DNA from: a virus
Lineage: Duplodnaviria; Heunggongvirae; Uroviricota; Caudoviricetes
Virus record (IMG/VR): IMGVR_UViG_3300043436_002205
Reading direction: 5' to 3' (one strand)
Length of the DNA: 28,512 nt
Positions within the stretch are counted from its first letter, which is position 1; the number at the start of each line of letters is the position of its first letter. The position numbers were made by a program, and so were the translations under genes. This document shows, piece by piece, positions 4,529-28,395 of this stretch. The notes under the pieces are model-generated. The model was given only the letters and a program-made list of their open reading frames with translations, was not told where the DNA came from and ran no database searches.

Positions 4529-4981
4529 TCAATCGCTTTCTGATTTCAAAAGCTTTTCATAAGCTTCTGAATCAACGACGCCTTCCTTCAGAAGTCTCTC
4601 ACGATTTACTCTATGCATATCCTGAACGTTATCCTTTGAGTCTCCAAAGTATGGAACAGCATGGCCTTCTTCAATAAGCATTGAACACGCAGTCTTGTCA
4701 CCTAGAACGAAGTCACCAAGTATTCTTCCAAATTTCTCGTCACTCTTTCCTGGCTTCTGAGTTCTCAGGATAGCAGTTTCACCGAGTATCTCGCCAAGTC
4801 TTTTCTTTGCGGCAAGACCAAAGATCTTTTCGACTTCGTCAGAAGTTCTGCTCTCTGGAGTATCAATACCCATGATGCGAACTCTTTCGTTTCTTAGCCA
4901 TACACCAAATCCTAGGTCAATGTCAACATCAACCGTATCCCCGTCGACAACACGGAGAATAGCGCATCTATATTCGTACAT
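4529..4981 (-). CDS. Thermonuclease (SNase-like) family nuclease
   Basis: VVDGDTVDV, RVRIMGIDTPE, KFGRILG. Confidence 0.85.
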   Translation of the reverse strand: MYEYRCAILRVVDGDTVDVDIDLGFGVWLRNERVRIMGIDTPESRTSDEVEKIFGLAAKKRLGEILGETAILRTQKPGKSDEKFGRILGDFVLGDKTACSMLIEEGHAVPYFGDSKDNVQDMHRVNRERLLKEGVVDSEAYEKLLKSESD

Positions 4982-4992
4982 TTAAAATTTCC

Positions 4993-5478
4993 TTATAGTT
5001 TAGTTATTGTGAAGTTTTTGAAGGCAAACGTCACCGTAGCTTGTGGATACACAACATCACTCTGAGTTGTGTCAAGCGTAACATCAGATAAACTCACTGG
5101 GAAACAGTCTTGAAATTGAATTTCGATATTCGGATTTTTATGACTGTTCATTATCACGATAGAGATATCAGTAAGTAATCCGTACTCACTATTCTTTAGG
5201 TTTTTGAATTGATCATAGTTTTCTGGAAAGGTTATGCCCTTCATCCAATTGAAAACTTCGATATAGTTGTTCATAGACTCGTCTATGATAAATGCAATGG
5301 GTAGATCGCCGAACGTTAGTCTATCTCCAGTAATCGGAATAGGCTTAAACGGGTTTGGCTGTTCTATAACTTGTAGAGACAAGGAAGGTATGTTTACTGT
5401 CTGTGTAAAGAACTGAACATTCGGTAGTCTCTTAACTGAGACCACGAACTCAAGTGGAGACATATAATTTGGTATCAT
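4993..5478 (-). CDS. 3: gp3-like tail tube terminator / tail completion protein
   Basis: NYMSPLEF...VQFFTQTVNIP...GDRL.FGDL...F.IDE...NY.E..NW..G..FP; minus-strand late promoter at 5521-5528. Confidence 0.8.
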   Translation of the reverse strand: MIPNYMSPLEFVVSVKRLPNVQFFTQTVNIPSLSLQVIEQPNPFKPIPITGDRLTFGDLPIAFIIDESMNNYIEVFNWMKGITFPENYDQFKNLKNSEYGLLTDISIVIMNSHKNPNIEIQFQDCFPVSLSDVTLDTTQSDVVYPQATVTFAFKNFTITKL

Positions 5479-6999: not shown

Positions 7000-7607
7000 T
7001 TCAAATTCAAGGCCCTCTTAATCGAGAGGTCTACGTTGCGTGTTCGGGTGGAGTCGACTCAATGGCTGTCGTAGATCTCTTGATGAAGAATCATAAAGTC
7101 AACATGTTATTCTTTAATCACGACACAGAAACGTCTCGTAGTGCAATAAGTTTTCTTGAAGAAAAATACTATGCAAGCATTTCCTTTGCTGGAACAAAAC
7201 TCGAAGTAGGTTCTATCAGAGGTAAGAAAGAACGTTCTGAGTCTTGGGAAGAGTATTGGCGAAATCAAAGATACTCGTGGTTTCATTCTTTCGATGTTCC
7301 AGTGATTACAGCTCATCATTTGGACGATTGCGTAGAGACTTGGATCTGGTCATCGATGCACGGAGAAGGAAAGATCATTCCTTATTCGAACAAGAATGTG
7401 ATTCGTCCGTTTCGACTGAATCGCAAGTCTGAGTTTACGAACTGGTGCCGCAACAAAAATGTATCTTGGATCGAAGACTCTTCAAACTCTGATACAAAGT
7501 ACATGCGAAACTTTATTCGTCAAGAGATTGTTCCAAAGGCGATGATTGTGAACCCTGGACTGCATAAAGTAATTCGTAAAAAGATTTTGGCAGACACTTC
7601 TTTATAA
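6996..7607 (+). CDS. tilS: tRNA(Ile)-lysidine synthetase, catalytic domain only
   Basis: SGGVDS PP-loop, TAHHLDDCVET, IRP, EDSSN...YMRNFIR. Confidence 0.85.
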   Translation: MIQIQGPLNREVYVACSGGVDSMAVVDLLMKNHKVNMLFFNHDTETSRSAISFLEEKYYASISFAGTKLEVGSIRGKKERSESWEEYWRNQRYSWFHSFDVPVITAHHLDDCVETWIWSSMHGEGKIIPYSNKNVIRPFRLNRKSEFTNWCRNKNVSWIEDSSNSDTKYMRNFIRQEIVPKAMIVNPGLHKVIRKKILADTSL

Positions 7608-10549: not shown

Positions 10550-10626
10550 AGGATCGTTACAGCATCTTAAAGCTCATTAGAGCATTTGACTTGTAATCAA
10601 AAGGAAAGCCGCAAGGCGCGATCCTG
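10550..10626 (+). ncRNA. Y-RNA-like element 1 with D-like arm and UGU anticodon arm
   Basis: AGGATCG/CGATCCT closing stem, TTACAGCA motif, TTTGA-CTTGTAA-TCAAA arm. Confidence 0.7.
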
Positions 10627-10647
10627 ACTATTAAACTATGAAACCAT

Positions 10648-10737
10648 AGGTTGGTTTCAGCAAAAAATAAAACCGGGAATGGTTCCCAATTTGTCTTATA
10701 AACAAACTTAACGGTTCTAATCCGTAAATCCAACCTG
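10648..10737 (+). ncRNA. Y-RNA-like element 2 with D-like, UAU anticodon and T-like arms
   Basis: AGGTTGG/CCAACCT stem (compensatory changes), TTTCAGCAA, TTTGT-CTTATAA-ACAAA, ACGG-TTCTAAT-CCGT. Confidence 0.7.
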
Positions 10738-10750
10738 AAAGGAATACACT

Positions 10751-12178
10751 ATGTCATTCGTTAATGCAGTTCAGAAATCCAAGAACAAAGCAGTCGCTCG
10801 TACCGCGAATGGTATGAAGGCTCGTGCTACTTCACAGTCGCCAGTTCTGGATCTATTCGGTCTTATCGGTTCCGCTCGTGGTACTGATATCACCAAGCAA
10901 TTCACCGCTTCTCTCGTAGAGAATGCCGATCTTACTCTGCGTATGCTGCAGTGGGCTCGTGACATTCGTGAGGGCGCAGGCGAACGTGCTACCTTCCGTA
11001 ATCTACTCTCTGCGCTAGAGGCTACCGACCCAACTCTTGCCGGAAAGCTGATGCACAAAATCCCAGCACTTGGTCGTTGGGATGACCTCTTTGCCTACAA
11101 GAACCCGATCAACCGCAATCAGGCTTTCGCTCTGATTGCAGAGGCTCTTGAAGCAAAGAATGGTCTGGCAGCAAAGTGGATGCCACGTAAAGGTCCGGTC
11201 GCAGTCGAACTGACTCGATACCTCGGTCTGTCTCCTAAGGCATACCGTAAGCTCATTGTCGGTTTGACCAATGTCGTTGAGACTCAGATGTGTGCTAAGG
11301 AATGGGAAGCTATCAACTTCTCGCACGTTCCTTCTGTCGCGTCTGCTCGTTATCAGAAAGCTTTCGGTCGTAATGCAAAAGAGTCCTACTCTGCTTACAT
11401 TGCGGAACTGAAGAAGCCTGTTGCTGAGCGTTCAGATCCTAAAGTCAAGATCAACGCTTCTGCGGTTTATCCGTATGATGTTGTGAAGTCTGTCGTGAAG
11501 GGTAATGCGGCTGTTGCTGATGAACAGTGGAAGGCTATGCCTAACTACATCGGCGATGCAAAGGTTCTGCCTATGGTCGACGTCTCCGGCTCGATGGGTT
11601 CGCTGTGGTACACCTACAGCCAACTGCAGCCAATCGACATTGCTGTTTCTCTTGGCCTTTATTGCGCTAGCAAGAACACCGGAGACTTCAAGGATCTGTT
11701 CCTGACCTTCTCTGGTAAGCCTAAGATGGAACACCTGAAAGGTACTCTGTCTCAGAAGATGACTCAGATGACAAAAGCTCACTGGGAAATGAACACCAAC
11801 CTGCACGCAGCATTCGATGAGATCCTCAAGATCGCTGTTAAGGGCAATGTGTCTCAGGAAGATATGCCTGACATGCTGCTCATCCTTTCGGACATGCAGT
11901 TCGATGCTTGCACTCGCTACGATGACTCTGCAATGCAGATGATCAAGCGTAAGTACAAGGAAGCAGGCTACGATGTTCCAAAGATCGTCTTTTGGAACCT
12001 GTCCATGTACGGTAAGGAAAACGGTAACACTCCAGTTAAGTTCGACAAGAACGGTACTGCGCATGTTTCTGGTTTCTCTCCTTCCATCATGAAGCATGTT
12101 CTCGCAAACGACCTCGAGGAGTTTACTCCATACAATGTTATGTTGAAGACTCTGATGAGCGATCGTTATGCCTACTAA
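10751..12178 (+). CDS. DUF2828-type TROVE/Ro60-like protein with C-terminal vWA domain
   Basis: TANG, RDIREGAGER, GRWDDL, AAKWMPR, SHVPS.A...Y..AF, MIDAS DVSGSM, LSDMQFD, FWNL, SGFS. Confidence 0.85.
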   Translation: MSFVNAVQKSKNKAVARTANGMKARATSQSPVLDLFGLIGSARGTDITKQFTASLVENADLTLRMLQWARDIREGAGERATFRNLLSALEATDPTLAGKLMHKIPALGRWDDLFAYKNPINRNQAFALIAEALEAKNGLAAKWMPRKGPVAVELTRYLGLSPKAYRKLIVGLTNVVETQMCAKEWEAINFSHVPSVASARYQKAFGRNAKESYSAYIAELKKPVAERSDPKVKINASAVYPYDVVKSVVKGNAAVADEQWKAMPNYIGDAKVLPMVDVSGSMGSLWYTYSQLQPIDIAVSLGLYCASKNTGDFKDLFLTFSGKPKMEHLKGTLSQKMTQMTKAHWEMNTNLHAAFDEILKIAVKGNVSQEDMPDMLLILSDMQFDACTRYDDSAMQMIKRKYKEAGYDVPKIVFWNLSMYGKENGNTPVKFDKNGTAHVSGFSPSIMKHVLANDLEEFTPYNVMLKTLMSDRYAY

Positions 12179-12212: not shown

Positions 12213-12313
12213 GGATCGTTGCAGCAAAAAATTAGCTAGTGCAACGGTAGCACACTTTCCTTCTAAGAAAGAGTTCCGGGTTCGATTCCTGGGCAAAATA
12301 AAAAGCGATCCTG
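12213..12313 (+). ncRNA. Y-RNA-like element 3 holding D, UCU anticodon and T arms without acceptor/CCA
   Basis: GGATCG/CGATCC stem, TTGCAGCAA, GTGC-AACGGTA-GCAC, CTTTC-CTTCTAA-GAAAG, CCGGG-TTCGATT-CCTGG. Confidence 0.75.
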
Positions 12314-12344
12314 TAAAATAATTTGAAATAACTCAACTTTTTTG

Positions 12345-12374
12345 TTGACATTCGTAGAATACAATGTATAAATA
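12345..12374 (+). promoter_or_regulatory. Promoter of leader 1: TTGACA plus gp55 late box TATAAATA
   Basis: TTGACA 12345-50, TATAAATA 12367-74. Confidence 0.75.
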
Positions 12375-12405
12375 TATCTAACAGAACTAAAGGAACTCGC
12401 ACTAA

Positions 12406-12492
12406 ATGATTCGCCAACCGCAACCTCAAATGAATAATAAGCGCCAGGTATTTACCTGCGAATATATTCGTATGTGCGAGGGTTCTATATAA
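12406..12492 (+). CDS. Leader peptide 1 of tRNA array 1 (28 aa)
   Basis: MIRQPQPQMNNKRQVFTCEYIRMCEGSI*; AAAGGAA RBS; 3' end overlaps the antiterminator strand. Confidence 0.7.
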   Translation: MIRQPQPQMNNKRQVFTCEYIRMCEGSI

Positions 12493-12553
12493 GGATATTA
12501 AATATCATACCTTATCAAAGAACCCTCCAGATGAAAGTCTAGGAGGGTTTTTT
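12478..12553 (+). terminator. Attenuator 1: mutually exclusive antiterminator and intrinsic terminator
   Basis: GAGGGTTCT (12478-86) pairs AGAACCCTC (12519-27); alternatively AACCCTCC..GGAGGGTT plus T-run (12521-53). Confidence 0.8.
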
Positions 12554-12558
12554 AATAT

Positions 12559-12640
12559 GGTGTGTGGCCCGGATGGTAAGGGGATGGATTGCAAATCCAT
12601 AGCACGAAAGTAGTCAGTTCGATTCTGACACACACCTCCA
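12559..12640 (+). tRNA. tRNA-Cys(GCA), enlarged variable loop
   Basis: Cloverleaf, ATGGA-TTGCAAA-TCCAT, U73, CCA. Confidence 0.9.
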
Positions 12641-12646
12641 GAATAC

Positions 12647-12718
12647 GGTGACACGTTGCGGTAACGACTTGGGTCTCATAAGCCCGAAGAGATGGTTCGA
12701 GTCCATCTGGCACCACCA
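12647..12718 (+). tRNA. tRNA-Met(CAT), atypical D region
   Basis: TGGGT-CTCATAA-GCCCG, canonical T arm, CCA; acceptor mismatch. Confidence 0.7.
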
Positions 12719-12730
12719 AGAAAAAAGTTG

Positions 12731-12759
12731 TTGACATTCATCTAGAATCAGTTTAGATA
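12731..12759 (+). promoter_or_regulatory. sigma70 promoter with spacer GAATCAG
   Basis: TTGACA; GAATC at 12745. Confidence 0.75.
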
Positions 12760-12797
12760 TGAGTTGACGGCGGAAGAAAGACAAAATCAATCTTCCA

Positions 12798-12812
12798 GTT
12801 CTTTGAAAATTT
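12798..12812 (+). promoter_or_regulatory. boxA-like antitermination site
   Basis: GTTCTTTGAAAATTT resembles rrn boxA (TGCTCTTTAACA); downstream of the promoter at 12731. Confidence 0.55.
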
Positions 12813-12856
12813 AAACTTTGTCCTAGCGTAAGCGATGATGGACTGGAAACAGATTT

Positions 12857-12962
12857 ACTCTGTTTTCAACTAGGGTTCGCGGTTCGATTCCGTGCTGGGC
12901 TTCGCGGGCCCGGGTTGCTGCAGCAGATAGTCATGGATGACGACCCTAGTTGAAAACAGAGT
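12857..12962 (+). ncRNA. Long-stem ncRNA A with permuted tRNA-like core
   Basis: Perfect 20-bp terminal stem enclosing T arm CGCGG-TTCGATT-CCGTG, a closed acceptor-like hairpin and a D-like hairpin. Confidence 0.7.
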
Positions 12963-12964
12963 TT

Positions 12965-13039
12965 TGGGAAGTAGTTCAGCGGCAGAATAACTGACTTTGA
13001 ATCAGCAGGCCGGTGGTTCGAATCCACCCTTCCCAACCA
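12965..13039 (+). tRNA. tRNA-Gln(TTG)
   Basis: Cloverleaf, CTTTGAA loop, U1-A72, CCA. Confidence 0.9.
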
Positions 13040-13047
13040 ATAATCAT

Positions 13048-13125
13048 CTGGGTGTAGCTCAGTCTGCGTAGAGTGCTTGCCTTGGAAGCAAGAAGTCGCT
13101 GGTTCGAATCCAGTCATCCAGACCA
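13048..13125 (+). tRNA. tRNA-Pro(TGG)
   Basis: CTTGC-CTTGGAA-GCAAG, C1-G72, CCA. Confidence 0.9.
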
Positions 13126-13135
13126 AAAATACCTG

Positions 13136-13164
13136 TTGACATTCATTTAGAATCAGTATATTCT
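13136..13164 (+). promoter_or_regulatory. sigma70 promoter with spacer GAATCAG
   Basis: TTGACA-N17-TATTCT. Confidence 0.8.
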
Positions 13165-13187
13165 GATAATACGAAAAGGAAAAAGAA

Positions 13188-13337
13188 ATGAAACGAAAAC
13201 ATAAGGACCTACCGAAGGCACGAAACCCATTCGTCCTTCATCTTTCCAAACGTCTTTCGGGCGCACACGGAAAGACTAAAAAAGCGGAACGCCGTAGTGA
13301 TAAGATGGCGTTGAAGCAGGAATGGACGGTTAGCTGA
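13188..13337 (+). CDS. Small basic protein (49 aa) overlapping tRNA-Lys
   Basis: MKRKHKDLPKARNPFVLHLSKRLSGAHGKTKKAERRSDKMALKQEWTVS*; own promoter and AAGGA RBS. Confidence 0.7.
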   Translation: MKRKHKDLPKARNPFVLHLSKRLSGAHGKTKKAERRSDKMALKQEWTVS

Positions 13338-13400
13338 GTTGGTTTAGCGGCGGGCTTTTAATCCGCGTCAACCAGGGTTCGAATCCCTGACCGTTCACCA
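13324..13400 (+). tRNA. tRNA-Lys(TTT)
   Basis: GCGGG-CTTTTAA-TCCGC, CCA. Confidence 0.9.
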
Positions 13401-13512
13401 TTACTTTGATGATGCACCGAGGGCGATTGGTACCAGCCCTTTCCTTGGTGGAAGCCTGCCGTTGAGGTGGGTGGGAGAGTTTCGATACCTCCACGGTGTA
13501 TCTTCTAAGTAA
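13401..13512 (+). ncRNA. Degenerate tRNA-like RNA with long variable arm and no CCA
   Basis: GATGCACCG/CGGTGTATC stem, GGGC..GCCC D-like arm, TTCC-TTGGT-GGAA, TTCGATA T-like loop. Confidence 0.5.
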
Positions 13513-13523
13513 TAGGAGTAAAG

Positions 13524-13916
13524 ATGTTAGAGTGTTTAATCATTGGTGATAGTATTGCAGTAGGAATAGGGCAATATAGACTGGATTGTGTAGTAGAAGC
13601 TAAGGTAGGTATTAACAGTCGTAACTATGTTAAGACTTATGCATTGCCTGAGTCGAAGTTAACAGTGATTAGCCTTGGTAGTAACGATCTAGGTATGAGC
13701 AATCAATATACTGTGTTGTATAACTTACGTAGCGAAATTAAAGGCACTGTGCTTTGGATATTGCCAGCTAACAATGACGAAGCGAGAAGCAATATACTAA
13801 CTATTGCAAGTATTCATAACGATAAAGTTGCTGATATTAGACAACTGCCGTTAAGCAAAGATGGTGTTCACCCTACTACAAAAAGCTATGAAGCACTAGC
13901 AAAGGTATTTAAATGA
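13524..13916 (+). CDS. SGNH/GDSL hydrolase
   Basis: GDSIA, LGSND and DGVHP catalytic blocks. Confidence 0.85.
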   Translation: MLECLIIGDSIAVGIGQYRLDCVVEAKVGINSRNYVKTYALPESKLTVISLGSNDLGMSNQYTVLYNLRSEIKGTVLWILPANNDEARSNILTIASIHNDKVADIRQLPLSKDGVHPTTKSYEALAKVFK

Positions 13917-14065
13917 CTGTAGAAGAAAGATTGGCAAAACTAGAAGCAATTATTGAAATTCTTATGGAAGACCCTGCGTTTCGACATAAAATCGAAGTTG
14001 CTCGTTTGATGTCAGGTAGTAACAAAAATCCAATCCACTTTGAAATCAAAGCCAATTATCAATAA
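13913..14065 (+). CDS. Hypothetical protein, 50 aa
   Basis: MTVEERLAKLEAIIEILMEDPAF...; ATGA overlap with the upstream stop. Confidence 0.55.
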   Translation: MTVEERLAKLEAIIEILMEDPAFRHKIEVARLMSGSNKNPIHFEIKANYQ

Positions 14066-14066
14066 T

Positions 14067-14142
14067 GCACCGGTAGCTGAGAGGCTTAGCGGCGGGCTCT
14101 TAATCCGCGACAACATGGGTTCGATTCCCATCCGGTACACCA
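14067..14142 (+). tRNA. tRNA-Lys(CTT)
   Basis: GCGGG-CTCTTAA-TCCGC, CCA; C2.A71 mismatch. Confidence 0.85.
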
Positions 14143-14269
14143 AAACGTGCCCTTTGACGTTGAAACAAACTAGGGTGATGGCGAATGATTCTTTCCTATC
14201 CTGCAGGATCAATGGGAAACGTCTAAATAACCATCCGCTGCCGAACTGCGATAGTGCTCGGTGCAATTT

Positions 14270-14347
14270 TGTCCTAGAGTCGTCCAGGTGACGGCACCTG
14301 GCTGTTAACCAGGATGGAGAGAGGTTCGAGTCCTCTTAGGACAGCCA
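14270..14347 (+). tRNA. tRNA-Asn(GTT)
   Basis: CCTGG-CTGTTAA-CCAGG, G73, CCA. Confidence 0.85.
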
Positions 14348-14351
14348 ATAT

Positions 14352-14427
<76 letters not shown>

Positions 14428-14477
14428 AGTTTGTGACAGATCCGGCTGCACATTAAAAGAATTTCCGGCTGAAATTT

Positions 14478-14552
14478 TGTGGTGTAGCTCAGTGGTAGAG
14501 CAATCCCCTGATAAGGGATAGGTCGGTGGTTCAATCCCACCCACTACAACCA
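14478..14552 (+). tRNA. tRNA-Ile(GAT)
   Basis: ATCCC-CTGATAA-GGGAT, CCA. Confidence 0.9.
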
Positions 14553-14557
14553 ATATT

Positions 14558-14641
14558 GGGAGTGCCGCCTCAAGGTGAGGCAGCGGACTGTAACTCCGTC
14601 GAGGAAACTCATGTTGGGTTCGATTCCCTTCACTCCCACCA
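14558..14641 (+). tRNA. tRNA-Tyr(GTA)
   Basis: GCGGA-CTGTAAC-TCCGT, long variable arm, CCA. Confidence 0.9.
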
Positions 14642-14648
14642 ATATAAC

Positions 14649-14725
14649 GTCCCTATAGATTACGTTGGCTAGATCATCGCCCTTTCAAGGCGAAGAAGCG
14701 GGATCGACACCCGCTGGGGATACCA
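14649..14725 (+). tRNA. tRNA-Glu(TTC)
   Basis: TCGCC-CTTTCAA-GGCGA, CCA. Confidence 0.9.
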
Positions 14726-14730
14726 ATCAC

Positions 14731-14804
14731 ACTCCTGTAGCATAATGGCAGTGCGCTGTCCTGACTCGACAGATGAGAAGGCTCGATTCCTTCCAGGAGT
14801 ACCA
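14731..14804 (+). tRNA. tRNA-Val(GAC), atypical U37 and C54
   Basis: CTGTC-CTGACTC-GACAG, CCA. Confidence 0.75.
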
Positions 14805-14809
14805 ACAAC

Positions 14810-14883
14810 GCTGCTATAGTATAAAGGTATTATGCATCTTTGGTAAGGATGAGACGGAGGATCGTTACCTCCTAGCAGCACCA
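14810..14883 (+). tRNA. tRNA-Thr(GGT)
   Basis: CATCT-TTGGTAA-GGATG, CCA. Confidence 0.85.
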
Positions 14884-14938
14884 TTTAGAGGTTGACATGT
14901 GGAACAGTTTAGACTATGATGGTGTAAAGGAGACAGCT

Positions 14939-15244
14939 ATGAACATCTCAATCGACTATGATGATACTTACACCAAAGATCCTCTTCTGTGGAATTGGTT
15001 CGCACAAGAAGCGTTGAACCGTGGACATAAGGTCTACTGTGTATCTGCTCGTGGAACCCAACACATGGATGATCCAAAGATGACAATCGGTCGAGTGATC
15101 GGTGCAGAGAATTGCTTTGGTACTGGTCTTCGTCCTAAACGTCACTTTATGCATCATGTTCATAAGATTGACATCGATGTATGGATCGACGATATGCCTG
15201 AGATGATTGTTGATCAGGAAATCGAAGGTTTGTATATGCCTTAA
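14939..15244 (+). CDS. Small HAD-like phosphatase
   Basis: IDYDDTYT (DxD), VSAR, K, WIDD; AAGGAG RBS before ATG 14939. Confidence 0.7.
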   Translation: MNISIDYDDTYTKDPLLWNWFAQEALNRGHKVYCVSARGTQHMDDPKMTIGRVIGAENCFGTGLRPKRHFMHHVHKIDIDVWIDDMPEMIVDQEIEGLYMP

Positions 15245-15245
15245 T

Positions 15246-15318
15246 GCTTCTGCCGGCGGAACCGGTGGCGGGTCTACGAAGCCTGCTTACGAATGTTCAA
15301 CTCATTCCAGGAGCGCCA
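15246..15318 (+). tRNA. tRNA-Arg(ACG), shortened D arm
   Basis: CGGGT-CTACGAA-GCCTG, CCA. Confidence 0.75.
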
Positions 15319-15323
15319 ATAAC

Positions 15324-15398
15324 GCCTCTATAGCTCAGCGGAAGAGTACTGGTCTTCGAAACCAAGGGTCGGGAGTTCGAATCTCTCTAGGGGCACCA
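15324..15398 (+). tRNA. tRNA-Arg(TCG)
   Basis: CTTCGAA loop, canonical arms, CCA. Confidence 0.9.
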
Positions 15399-16125: not shown

Positions 16126-16140
16126 TATCTAAAACATTCA

Positions 16141-16167
16141 AGGGCTGCATCATGCAGCCCTTTTTTT
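16141..16167 (+). terminator. Intrinsic terminator
   Basis: AGGGCTGCA-TCA-TGCAGCCCT plus T-run. Confidence 0.85.
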
Positions 16168-20116: not shown

Positions 20117-20500
20117 ATGATCCTGAAAACGCAGCTTCATGATTCGTACGATCATCTCGTAAATCCATTTGTGAAGTTCCTATGCAATGAACTCTCAGTT
20201 CTTCCTCGTGAAGTCACTATCGTGAGCGAAGACGTAGAAGGTGGAGTCGGTCTCTGTATCGATGTCGATCCCGACTCATTTCTTATTCTCGTGAAAGAGA
20301 GTGGTCGTAGTGTTGGTCAAGTACTTACTACGATTGCTCACGAGATGATCCATGTTAAACAATACATGACACAGGAACTTGGTAGACTTCTAGATGAACA
20401 GAGTCACGTTCCATACGAAGATCGTTGGTGGGAAAAAGAAGCTTATGAAAATGCAGTTCCTTTAGTAGAAAAATTTGTAAAAATTATAAATACCTCGTAA
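20117..20500 (+). CDS. HExxH zinc metallopeptidase-like protein, paralogue
   Basis: TIAHEMIHVKQ, WWEKEAY. Confidence 0.75.
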   Translation: MILKTQLHDSYDHLVNPFVKFLCNELSVLPREVTIVSEDVEGGVGLCIDVDPDSFLILVKESGRSVGQVLTTIAHEMIHVKQYMTQELGRLLDEQSHVPYEDRWWEKEAYENAVPLVEKFVKIINTS

Positions 20501-20515
20501 AGAGGAGATTTATAC

Positions 20516-20980
20516 ATGCAGTCTTTTAAAAATTTTTTGTTAGAACAATCTAAGTGGGTGAAGCCGCATCATACTGATGAACACGACGAAGTTCACGTCC
20601 AGTCTGAAGTTCCTCATGGCGAATATCCAGACCACGTTCATAAAATGTTGCAACATTTGAAAGATAAAGACAACTACCACTCTGCAATGAAGAGTGGGAA
20701 ACACATGGTTGTGACTCCTTCGTCTGCTAAAAAGATCTCTAACACAGACGCTGGATACAAACCAACGCGTGACACGTTTAGACAAGACAAAAGAGAACGT
20801 GTCACAAAACAGATGAAGAGTGGAAAGCCAATGACTAAGCCGATAGTTCTTCATGATACTCATACCGGCCATACGCATCTTTTAGCTGGAAACACTCGAC
20901 TCACAATGAACACCCATCACGGATCAAAAACAACACCAGTTCATGCTATCACGTATGATTCGAGTAAAATGAAAAAATAA
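20516..20980 (+). CDS. His-rich late protein with ParB/Srx-like C-terminal motif
   Basis: KPIVL...LLAGNTRL; late promoter at 20485; N-terminus MQSFKNFLLE. Confidence 0.55.
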   Translation: MQSFKNFLLEQSKWVKPHHTDEHDEVHVQSEVPHGEYPDHVHKMLQHLKDKDNYHSAMKSGKHMVVTPSSAKKISNTDAGYKPTRDTFRQDKRERVTKQMKSGKPMTKPIVLHDTHTGHTHLLAGNTRLTMNTHHGSKTTPVHAITYDSSKMKK

Positions 20981-21002
20981 TTGTAAAAAATGTCTGCGAC
21001 CA

Positions 21003-21030
21003 TTGACATCTCATACAAATGATATAAATA
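21003..21030 (+). promoter_or_regulatory. Promoter of leader 2: TTGACA plus late box TATAAATA
   Basis: TTGACA 21003-08, TATAAATA 21023-30. Confidence 0.7.
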
Positions 21031-21057
21031 CTATTGTATAACCAACAGAGAAGAAAC

Positions 21058-21138
21058 ATGCTTTCTACACATTCGAGCATATCAAGACAGGCGATAAATC
21101 TCCCAGGCGTATGGACTGATGGAGACGGGCTACTTTGA
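21058..21138 (+). CDS. Leader peptide 2 of tRNA array 2 (26 aa)
   Basis: MLSTHSSISRQAINLPGVWTDGDGLL*; last four codons form the antiterminator strand. Confidence 0.7.
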   Translation: MLSTHSSISRQAINLPGVWTDGDGLL

Positions 21139-21202
21139 CATAGATACAAGATCAAATCTATCTCAAAGTAGCCCAGGATGAAAATCCTGGGTTTCTTCAT
21201 TT
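21127..21202 (+). terminator. Attenuator 2: antiterminator and intrinsic terminator
   Basis: GGGCTACTTTGA (21127-38) pairs TCAAAGTAGCCC (21163-74); alternatively GCCCAGGAT-GAAA-ATCCTGGGT plus T-rich tail. Confidence 0.8.
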
Positions 21203-21207
21203 AATGG

Positions 21208-21236
21208 TTGACAAAACGTTAGAATCAGATTATACT
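21208..21236 (+). promoter_or_regulatory. sigma70 promoter with spacer GAATCAG
   Basis: TTGACA-N17-TATACT. Confidence 0.85.
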
Positions 21237-21259
21237 AACAATATAAGAAGAAACTAACT

Positions 21260-21275
21260 AGCTCTTTGACAATTT
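21260..21275 (+). promoter_or_regulatory. boxA-like antitermination site
   Basis: AGCTCTTTGACAATTT downstream of the promoter at 21208. Confidence 0.65.
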
Positions 21276-21295
21276 AGAAAAGGAAACAGAAGAAA

Positions 21296-21444
21296 TTCTG
21301 TTTTCACATATGACTGTAAATGGGAGTACTATGGTTCGAATCCATAGGTGGTCTGGCTGACCGTGATTTACAATGCCAAAAGGGCCAGCGTGCCCCTGAG
21401 CGCTCGAAAGTTCGAAGCTTTCACAGTCATAGTTGAAAACAGAA
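21296..21444 (+). ncRNA. Long-stem ncRNA B containing a T arm
   Basis: TTCTGTTTTCA/TGAAAACAGAA plus TATGACTGT/ACAGTCATA stems; CTATGG-TTCGAAT-CCATAG. Confidence 0.65.
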
Positions 21445-21448
21445 GTTT

Positions 21449-21526
21449 TGCGGGGTAGACTGGAGGTGGTTCCAGCACGGTCTCATAAGCCGAAGACGTA
21501 GGTTCGATTCCTACCCACCGCAACCA
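21449..21526 (+). tRNA. tRNA-Met(CAT), initiator-like
   Basis: TGCGGGG 5' end, CTCATAA loop, CCA; irregular acceptor. Confidence 0.75.
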
Positions 21527-21528
21527 AG

Positions 21529-21616
21529 TTTAGACTGTAGAATTAATCACCTCTTGTGAAGGTGTCCCTGATCCGTCATCGCCGGCAGGTCAAAGCTGCA
21601 AACAGCCCAGTCTAAA
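21529..21616 (+). ncRNA. Structured spacer RNA
   Basis: TTTAGACTG/CAGTCTAAA closing stem; CACCT-CTTGTGA-AGGTG; GCTG-CAAA-CAGC. Confidence 0.4.
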
Positions 21617-21623
21617 ACAAATC

Positions 21624-21657
21624 GGGGGATTAGCTCAATTGGTTAGAGTTGCCCGCT
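21624..21657 (+). pseudogene. 5' half of a tRNA truncated at position 33
   Basis: GGGGGAT-TA-GCTC-AATTGGTTA-GAGT-T-GCCCG-CT followed by AT-rich endonuclease DNA; no matching 3' half seen. Confidence 0.7.
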
Positions 21658-21698
21658 ATGAAATATCTTTTTGTATAAATAGACAAAAGGAGATTATA

Positions 21699-22262
21699 AT
21701 GCTTTACACAATATACCAAATAACTAATGAGCTTAACGGAAAAATATACATAGGAAAGCATCAAACTACCAATCTCAATGATAGATATTATGGCTCTGGA
21801 AAGTTCATAAGGTCTGCCATGAAGAAATATGGTAAAGAGAACTTTACTAAAGAGATACTATTTGTCTTCGATACTGAAGAAGAAATGAATACAAAAGAGA
21901 AAGAGTTGATAACAGAAGAGTTTGTATCCAGAAAAGATACTTACAACGCCGGAATTGGCGGAGAAGGAGGACCTCATTTCAAAGGGAAAAAGCACGGCTC
22001 TTACATGAAAGAAATAAGTAGCTCTGTAGATCATCGTAAAAAAATAAGTGAAGGTCTTAAAGAACACTATAAAGATAACGCTGCTTGGAACAAAGGTCAA
22101 ACAATATCATCAAATCAAAAAGATAAAATATCAAAAACAATGAGTGGAAGAAAACTTTCAGAAGAAACAAAAAATAAGATAAAAGAAGCGCGGGCAAGAC
22201 AAACATTTTCAGAAGAAACAAAAAAGAAAATGACTGAAAGCGCAAGAAATAGAAAGAAATAA
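21699..22262 (+). mobile_element. Free-standing GIY-YIG homing endonuclease (Seg-like) with NUMOD3-type repeats
   Basis: TIYQITNELNGKIYIGKH, YYGSG, YN...GGEGG, SEETK repeats; AT-rich; own TATAAATA and AAGGAG. Confidence 0.9.
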
Positions 22263-22269
22263 TTTTAGT

Positions 22270-22346
22270 GGGCTTGTCGACTAATTGGTTAAGTCACAAT
22301 CCTCATAAGATTGCTGATCGCGGTTCGAGTCCGTGCGGGCCTACCA
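22270..22346 (+). tRNA. tRNA(CAT), probably Ile2 (lysidine substrate)
   Basis: CAATC-CTCATAA-GATTG; GGGC acceptor start with C4-G69 resembles Ile2; CCA. Confidence 0.75.
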
Positions 22347-23198: not shown

Positions 23199-23286
23199 GG
23201 AAGCGTGGGCGAGAGGTTTATGCCTGCAGTCTTGAAAACTGCCGAACGGAAACGTTCCGTGAGTTCGAATCTCACCGCTTCCGCCA
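23199..23286 (+). tRNA. tRNA-Ser(TGA)
   Basis: GCAGT-CTTGAAA-ACTGC, long variable arm, G73. Confidence 0.95.
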
Positions 23287-24338: not shown

Positions 24339-24426
24339 GGATCGTGGGCAGGACGGTAATGCAGCAGATTGCTAATCTGTAGAACGAGCAATCGTTCACT
24401 GGGTTCGACTCCCAGACGGTCCGCCA
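24339..24426 (+). tRNA. tRNA-Ser(GCT)
   Basis: GCAGA-TTGCTAA-TCTGT, long variable arm, G73. Confidence 0.9.
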
Positions 24427-25906: not shown

Positions 25907-25984
25907 GGTCCTATAGCTCAGCTTGGTTAGAGCGCGAGTCTCTAAAACTCACGGCCGCGGGTTCAAATCCCGCTTGGACCACCA
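25907..25984 (+). tRNA. Amber suppressor tRNA (CTA)
   Basis: CGAGT-CTCTAAA-ACTCA; canonical D and T arms; A73-CCA. Confidence 0.85.
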
Positions 25985-28322: not shown

Positions 28323-28395
28323 GCGGGTGAGGCTAAGGTAGCCAACTAGCCTTCCAAGCTATAGGAGACCGGTTCGATTCCGGCCACCCGCTCCA
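28323..28395 (+). tRNA. tRNA-Gly(TCC)
   Basis: CTTCCAA loop, GCGGGTG acceptor, U73. Confidence 0.9.

Follow-up and report, generated by a model that had tools for sequence, protein, structure and literature searches.

A probable leader-peptide attenuator ahead of a tRNA gene array in a large T4-like phage

In the enterobacterial his, trp, leu and pheA leaders, and in the multivalent leaders ilvGMEDA/ilvBN (Ile, Leu, Val) and thr (Thr, Ile), a short promoter-proximal ORF is followed by an intrinsic terminator and an overlapping antiterminator; the position of the ribosome decides between them, and a stall results in read-through. The phage element described here shares this layout and, as in the ilv and thr leaders, several amino acids are represented among the codons of its ORF. 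What sets it apart is the target, since it would control tRNA genes rather than biosynthetic enzymes, and the leader, which offers one or few codons for each of 13–20 amino acids instead of runs for one to three. Furthermore, it consists of two competing helices without a separate 1:2 pause/protector pair, so that absence of translation would lead to read-through and not to super-attenuation. The pheST attenuator of E. coli senses Phe codons and controls phenylalanyl-tRNA synthetase. There, as proposed here, a gene of the translation apparatus is subject to leader-peptide attenuation and charged tRNA is sensed by decoding of the leader, but pheST concerns one amino acid and a synthetase, whereas the phage element concerns many amino acids and tRNA genes. 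T-box riboswitches likewise place translation-apparatus genes under terminator/antiterminator control by tRNA status; however, the T-box binds uncharged tRNA directly and without translation, whereas the predicted phage sensor is a translated ORF, and no match to a T-box (specifier loop, T-box motif or Rfam model) was found in the element. In pyrBI, a ribosome close to the polymerase blocks terminator formation and the signal is UTP-dependent pausing. The outcome is set, as in the proposed phage mechanism, by the distance of the ribosome behind RNA polymerase, but in the phage element a ribosome near the stop codon would permit the terminator. The leader-peptide logic is a known one, with the multivalent ilv and thr leaders and pheST as its nearest counterparts, and it is the tRNA-gene target, the leader design and the two-helix layout that differ; a literature search found no description of leader-peptide attenuation controlling tRNA genes.

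The window, a stretch of 28,512 nucleotides, is the minus strand of positions 53118–81629 in a viral record of 217,966 bp, complete according to CheckV. It carries T4-like genes, including both subunits of topoisomerase II, a GIY-YIG homing endonuclease of the Seg type and a DUF2828/Ro-like RNA-binding protein. The genome has about 36 tRNA genes (ARAGORN and Rfam) in two blocks, both on the plus strand of the window: array 1 at 12230–15398 and array 2, which starts at 21449, reaches 28478 within the window and runs on past its edge. The in-window part of array 2 comprises two CAT tRNAs, Arg(TCT), Ser(TGA), Ala, Asp, Val(TAC), Leu(TAG), Ser(GCT), Asn, Trp, Pro, an amber suppressor(CTA), Gly(TCC) and Thr(TGT). 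Four tRNA genes pass the Rfam threshold and are missed by ARAGORN at default settings: a third CAT tRNA (21449–21526, plus strand), Tyr(GTA) (14558–14641, plus strand), Gly(TCC) (28323–28395, plus strand) and His(GTG), the first three being called by Rfam or relaxed ARAGORN. The CAT tRNA at 21449–21526 has 84% identity to tRNA-Met of Gordonia phages. The CTA-anticodon tRNA at 25907–25984, labelled Pyl by ARAGORN, is of the amber suppressor type and is found too in L019, L025, L026–L028 and L042; the TAG codon is absent from every leader examined. Array 2 spans about 9.5 kb and includes protein genes and internal promoters. The unit of array 1 is closed by a strong terminator at 16140–16162, which is bidirectional, has a 10-bp stem of −16.3 kcal/mol and lies just ahead of the topoisomerase genes.

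The element ahead of array 2 (attenuator 2) is likely, though well short of certain, to be a ribosome-dependent (leader-peptide) transcription attenuator. All of its parts lie on the plus strand. A consensus scan predicts a sigma-70-like promoter at 21003–21032, with a −35 TTGACA at 21003–21008 and a TATAAATA-type −10 motif at about 21023–21032; a −10 motif of this type precedes every att1- and att2-type leader in the relatives. The purine-rich 5′ UTR contains a weak RBS of the AGAGAAGA type (21047–21057), and its weakness had been remarked on from the sequence; a near-identical motif occurs at the same position in three homologous leaders (L039, L038 and L043). The leader ORF itself (21058–21138), with homologous leaders in relatives, begins with ATG at 21058 and has 26 sense codons and a TGA at 21136–21138, exactly where the original prediction had placed it. 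Its last three sense codons and the stop (21127–21138) form the 5′ strand of an antiterminator, the 3′ strand of which (21163–21174) is their exact reverse complement, in agreement with the perfect pairing of 12 bp that had been proposed; this pairing covaries in four family members. An inner 6-bp hairpin (21140–21145 with 21156–21161), obtained by folding and kept with altered sequence in relatives, caps the antiterminator, so that the whole helix has 12 + 6 bp (21127–21145 with 21156–21174) and includes the stop codon. The predicted intrinsic terminator with its T-run (21170–21203), recognized by folding and covariation, has arms at 21170–21179 and 21184–21193 that form a 10-bp stem around a GAAA loop (21180–21183), with a stability of −16.2 kcal/mol; the T-run is interrupted after three T. 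The two helices are mutually exclusive: five nucleotides (21170–21174) belong both to the antiterminator 3′ strand and to the base of the terminator 5′ arm, which is the overlap that had been noted earlier. A second predicted sigma-70-like promoter (TTGACA / 17 nt / TATACT, 21208–21236, from the consensus scan) lies between the terminator and the tRNAs. Array 2 would thus have a source of transcription besides read-through, and read-through would be an added input.

For the 166-nt region, the folding energy is −52.3 kcal/mol (z = −5.9), a stability that none of 200 shuffles attains. The 12-nt complement is the longest between an ORF end and a terminator on both strands of the 218-kb genome, the runner-up having 9 nt. 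The antiterminator has a predicted stability of −25.6 kcal/mol versus −16.2 kcal/mol for the terminator. When the ribosome is represented in folding as a mask with a 30-nt footprint, the probability of the terminator base pairs is 0.05–0.18 without a ribosome or with the A site at codons 1–19, and 0.63–0.90 with the A site at codons 20–27. In this model, the ribosome-masking fold is a clean switch at codon 20. None of the curated leader models in Rfam (Trp, His, Thr, Leu and similar) matches the window at gathering score, and relaxation to E ≤ 5 within 20900–21700 gives chance-level matches only. DNA searches of a phage collection with 20500–22300, for near and distant relatives, returned homing-endonuclease and tRNA similarities only, with no close cultured relative. 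For the 154-residue protein encoded upstream, homologues occur in 14 viral contigs, but never with tRNAs behind them, so that synteny was of no use.

The composition of the leader can be compared with the content of the array behind it. The codons TCT, TCG, AGC, TCA, ATA (twice), AGA, CTA, TGG, CAT and CAG, listed in the original prediction, are all there. The claim that three Ser isoacceptors lie downstream has to be corrected to two, as ARAGORN (default and relaxed) and Rfam detect only Ser(TGA) at 23199 and Ser(GCT) at 24339. It had also been predicted that tRNA genes for His, Gln(CTG), Gly(GCC) and Leu(GAG) would be found past the window. Exactly five further tRNA genes continue array 2 on the same strand (window-equivalent positions 29907–30760), namely Leu(TAA) at 29907 and a tight block of His(GTG) (30448–30523), Gly(GCC) (30529–30603), Leu(GAG) (30609–30685) and Gln(CTG) (30687–30760); all four predicted genes are therefore present, within 30448–30760. 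The His(GTG) gene is weak, with 30.1 bits versus an Rfam threshold of 29, an odd T-loop and an ARAGORN call only at relaxed settings; it aligns lengthwise with the His tRNAs of five relatives, which are ARAGORN default calls, and the anticodon loop is identical. No strong plus-strand terminator occurs between 21.2 and 33.8 kb and, judging from this, read-through could reach the distal His, Gly, Leu and Gln genes.

All 26 leader codons are cognate to array-2 tRNAs, compared to a genome baseline of 0.65 (the share of codons readable by array 2 in 159 long ORFs of the genome). This count presumes that U34 reads U in four-codon boxes (TCT, ACT) and that one of the two CAT tRNAs is an ATA-reading Ile tRNA, which is assumed here; under strict wobble, 24 of the 26 codons are cognate. 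The probability of 26/26 is 2.5e-5 for random codons and 2.5e-4 for windows of real genes. The leader touches 18 of the 20 tRNA species of array 2 (P about 1.5e-5). Among the 890 ATG-started ORFs of 20–40 codons in the genome, one other equals the leader in cognate-codon fraction and none in tRNA count. At the level of amino acids, the leader contains each of the 15 types that array 2 serves and no foreign one (joint P about 1e-5). When the nucleotides of this leader are shuffled, the joint P is 1e-4, and such shuffles, applied to every leader, rule out base composition as the cause of the amino-acid match. The idea that the leader is an inventory of the array thus survives controls with random codons, gene windows, small ORFs and nucleotide shuffles. 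The choice between synonymous codons, resampled for the given peptide, is also biased towards the array (p = 0.0066), driven by ATA, AGA and CAG. Codons for Asp, Gly(TCC) and Leu(TAG) are restricted to codons 20–26; a stall there would favour termination, which counts against the attenuator reading.

A sister element, attenuator 1 (12346–12553, plus strand), lies ahead of array 1 and has the same order of promoter, leader, antiterminator and terminator. Its promoter has a −10 motif identical in type to that of attenuator 2. The 28-codon leader (12406–12492) ends in the antiterminator 5′ strand, and the terminator (12521–12549), the stem of which is interrupted, ends 10 nt before a tRNA-Cys that starts at 12559 on the same strand, directly after the element. 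The amino-acid set of its first 25 residues is identical to the set served by the 14 tRNAs behind it, 13 amino acids in all (joint P about 1e-5). The two leaders divide the amino acids as the two arrays do: Lys, Glu, Phe, Tyr and Cys are exclusive to leader 1 and array 1, whereas His, Ala, Asp, Leu and Trp are exclusive to leader 2 and array 2. Ser and Gly are likewise confined to the second pair, save for a single Gly and a single Ser in the tail of leader 1, which is under stem constraint. Equilibrium folding with the ribosome mask shows no switch for attenuator 1.

In the mechanism proposed for attenuator 2, transcripts starting at the 21003 promoter would carry the 26-codon leader, every amino acid of which, and here every codon, would be served by an array-2 tRNA when the leader is translated. 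If the ribosome lags in codons 1–19 while the polymerase transcribes 21163–21193, the end of the leader would pair with 21163–21174; this pairing would remove the base of the terminator stem and the polymerase would continue into the tRNA genes. If, instead, the ribosome has arrived at about codon 20 or at the stop codon, it would cover the leader-end strand, the full terminator would form and the transcript would end, presumably at 21193. The outcome would be that of a kinetic race between ribosome and polymerase. Supply would be driven by demand: slow decoding of any array-served codon class, the putative physiological signal, would raise transcription of the array, whether the slowing comes from scarce or cleaved host tRNAs or from phage tRNA that is still too low. 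Enough tRNA would switch the attenuator input off, and the promoter at 21208 would supply basal transcription of the array. Thus, the phage probably makes more array-2 tRNAs when the leader codons are decoded slowly.

Related loci were located via the Ro-like protein, the terminator pattern and whole-record fetches. BLAST of both elements against these loci gives matches only in L018, L019 and L023, and structure-based scans were needed; of the terminator scans, one misses attenuator 1 (interrupted stem) and the other attenuator 2 (interrupted T-run), and at a loose threshold there are many false positives. The resulting set consists of nine elements of the att1 type and four of the att2 type, together with the near-identical L018, across nine related contigs; their tRNA arrays depend partly on relaxed ARAGORN calls. 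Besides the window and L018, the att2 type is found in L039, L038 and L043, which have in common the −10 motif, the purine-rich RBS, a stop codon within the antiterminator strand, a terminator with an A-rich loop and a promoter directly after it, and then an array of the Ser/Ala/Asp/Gly/Leu/Trp type. The leader starts with Met-Leu-Ser in the window, L018, L039 and L038; in L043 the leader has diverged and the terminator is nearly identical to that of the window. No att2-type element is present before array 2 in L019, L021, L022 and L025 or between the arrays of L041, where plain promoters are found.

Comparison among these elements extends the inventory idea to 13 leaders, each of which matches its own array. 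In the first nine elements, the own leader covers 95 of the 97 pairs of array amino acid and element. Permutation of the arrays among leaders (Jaccard) gives p = 7e-5 for these nine elements, 7e-4 for the att1 family alone and p ≤ 5e-6 for all 13. In the four phages with both elements, the codon fraction is 0.52–1.0 with the own array versus 0.07–0.43 with the arrays swapped. Trp, His, Gln and Pro switch arrays between phages and the leaders mostly follow. Exceptions are residues with no matching tRNA (Trp in L029, His in L035, Pro in three leaders) and the absence of His from the leaders of L037 and L043. In a phage with a single attenuator (L032/L041), a 36-codon leader with all 20 amino acids covers 19 of the 19 types in the two arrays that it precedes. 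Residues that the array does not serve are concentrated in the last six codons (32/78, 41%) versus the body of the leader (42/262, 16%) in the 13 elements (p = 8e-6). Since mask folding places the switch only at codon 20, the last six or seven codons would not take part in sensing, which agrees with this clustering; the base-pairing constraint on the leader tail would yield equal clustering.

Synonymous codon choice is not significant in 12 of the 13 elements, att2 of the window being the only one in which it is. Outside the element of the window, the match between leader and array is therefore at the level of amino acids and not of synonymous codons, which a strictly codon-specific sensor does not predict. 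This feature would suit a real switch that reads general translation capacity (ribosome availability, transcription-translation coupling, host shut-off) and not the tRNA species of the array, the amino acids served by the phage merely keeping the leader translatable after degradation of host tRNAs. With the antiterminator as the default in the absence of a ribosome, any loss of translation would give read-through. However, such a switch has no need for a partition of amino acids between two leaders that mirrors the two arrays, nor for covariation with array content inside the att1 family, and in the element of the window the synonymous choice, too, follows the array. A readout of general capacity is accordingly considered unlikely, and sensing of array-served codons remains the preferred reading.

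Both alternative helices of the att2 type show compensatory changes, which, together with the switch at codon 20, support the attenuator structure that had been drawn from the window. In the four-member alignment, 94% of the antiterminator cells are paired versus 35–48% with the partner slid, double changes occur in 6 of 18 pairs, and none of 500 shuffles reaches the observed score; the sequences are related, and these shuffle counts are not true probabilities. The terminator is 95% paired in the same alignment, with compensatory changes in 3 of 10 pairs. In most family members, equilibrium folds favour the terminator in every ribosome state, and the equilibrium switch is clear only in the element of the window and one relative. 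For most relatives, a kinetic argument is therefore needed. Attenuators that work kinetically commonly favour the terminator at equilibrium.

The thermodynamic preference for the terminator in most relatives could also point to an independent micro-gene or short RNA, equipped with a promoter and terminator of its own and acting for example as an insulator against upstream transcription and without regulated read-through. The long hairpin would then merely stabilize the RNA or serve as an RNase III processing structure, for which a helix of about 19 bp is in principle long enough, and the promoter found in the equivalent position directly downstream of all four att2-type elements would provide for the array. 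A peptide function is unlikely, because the leader peptides are poorly conserved in sequence. In addition, neither the equality of leader and array amino acids, with its covariation, nor the stop codon that always lies within the strand competing with the terminator is explained by an isolated transcript, which makes this a distinctly improbable account. A minus-strand gene for an 83-residue protein (21200 down to 20949) is far less probable still: the frame is open across the element in the window, L039 and L038, and an opposite-strand CDS is annotated over the analogous region in KVP40 and D482, but L043 and 7 of 9 att1 elements have it interrupted, it runs into the promoter and the end of the gene upstream, it has no Shine-Dalgarno motif and no PHROG match even at E ≤ 1, and it gives hydrophobic, low-complexity translations that can barely be aligned; it was rejected. 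A chance small ORF beside an ordinary terminator, conceivable in phage early regions rich in both and with a permissive scan that gives many false matches, is negligible in view of probabilities of 1e-4 to 1e-5 under four nulls, the tRNA genes found as predicted and conservation with covariation.

The attenuator reading may have a wider counterpart in cultured Vibrio phages of the KVP40 and nt-1 group. In KVP40 (L044), an ORF of 37 codons with 19 different amino acids, preceded by AGAGAG and followed by a terminator, occupies 10797–10959. The ORF ends in a short strand able to pair with the 5′ arm of the terminator, which precedes the first main-array tRNA by about 130 nt. ORFs of this type, with 37–38 codons and 18–19 different amino acids, are found in six Vibrio phages (L044–L049) at identities down to 72%. 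The antiterminator is weak (4 bp plus an inner hairpin), and the Vibrio element is therefore regarded as a possible analogue and a lead only. The records annotate nothing over this ORF, or a hypothetical gene on the opposite strand.

The presence of tRNA genes in phages has prompted decades of debate, with codon compensation and the replacement of degraded host tRNAs as candidate reasons. Escape from tRNA-cleaving defences is another idea (PMC10264068). It seems an evenly balanced proposition that large T4-like phages possess a general sensor of decoding capacity, in which near-pangram leaders list the amino acids of the next tRNA block and gate its transcription for supply on demand, with one leader per array or a merged leader of 20 amino acids as arrays rearrange. 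Degradation of host tRNAs, or their cleavage by anticodon-nuclease defences, would for example trigger induction. If true, the phage would track decoding and adjust its tRNA supply through feedback, and the depletion and defence hypotheses would become directly testable. Leader-peptide attenuation would also be extended from amino-acid operons to tRNA genes, with a leader design in which each of up to 20 amino acids has a single codon. As a practical rule, leader composition may help to anticipate tRNA genes, as it foretold four unseen ones here.

Several minor features accompany the arrays. The DUF2828/Ro-like gene (10751–12178; phrog_850, E = 4.5e-145) is located between both tRNA arrays in relatives, and a sub-threshold tRNA-like match of 24.6 bits lies just upstream of it (10563–10654). 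The His-Gly(GCC)-Leu(GAG)-Gln(CTG) block closes array 2 in this genome, whereas in the close relative L025 (1598–1997) it closes array 1, after Arg(TCG); this indicates rearrangement between the arrays. Related contigs include tmRNA genes, permuted and of the alphaproteobacterial type in L022 (12515–12886, Rfam 104 bits) and called by ARAGORN in L026–L028 (about 4631–5170); these genes may give a hint of the host group. A structured cassette of about 125 nt (21268–21444), flanked by GAAAACAG-type repeats, separates the array promoter from the first CAT tRNA. An ARAGORN call of a tRNA-Glu at 21268–21354 overlaps this repeat-bracketed cassette; it is without Rfam support and was excluded from array 2. 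In L018, which is otherwise 98% identical, the interior of the cassette is swapped for unrelated sequence (reverse strand, about 7195–7330). A comparable bracketed cassette lies at 12845–12962, and more are found in L019, L021 and L025.
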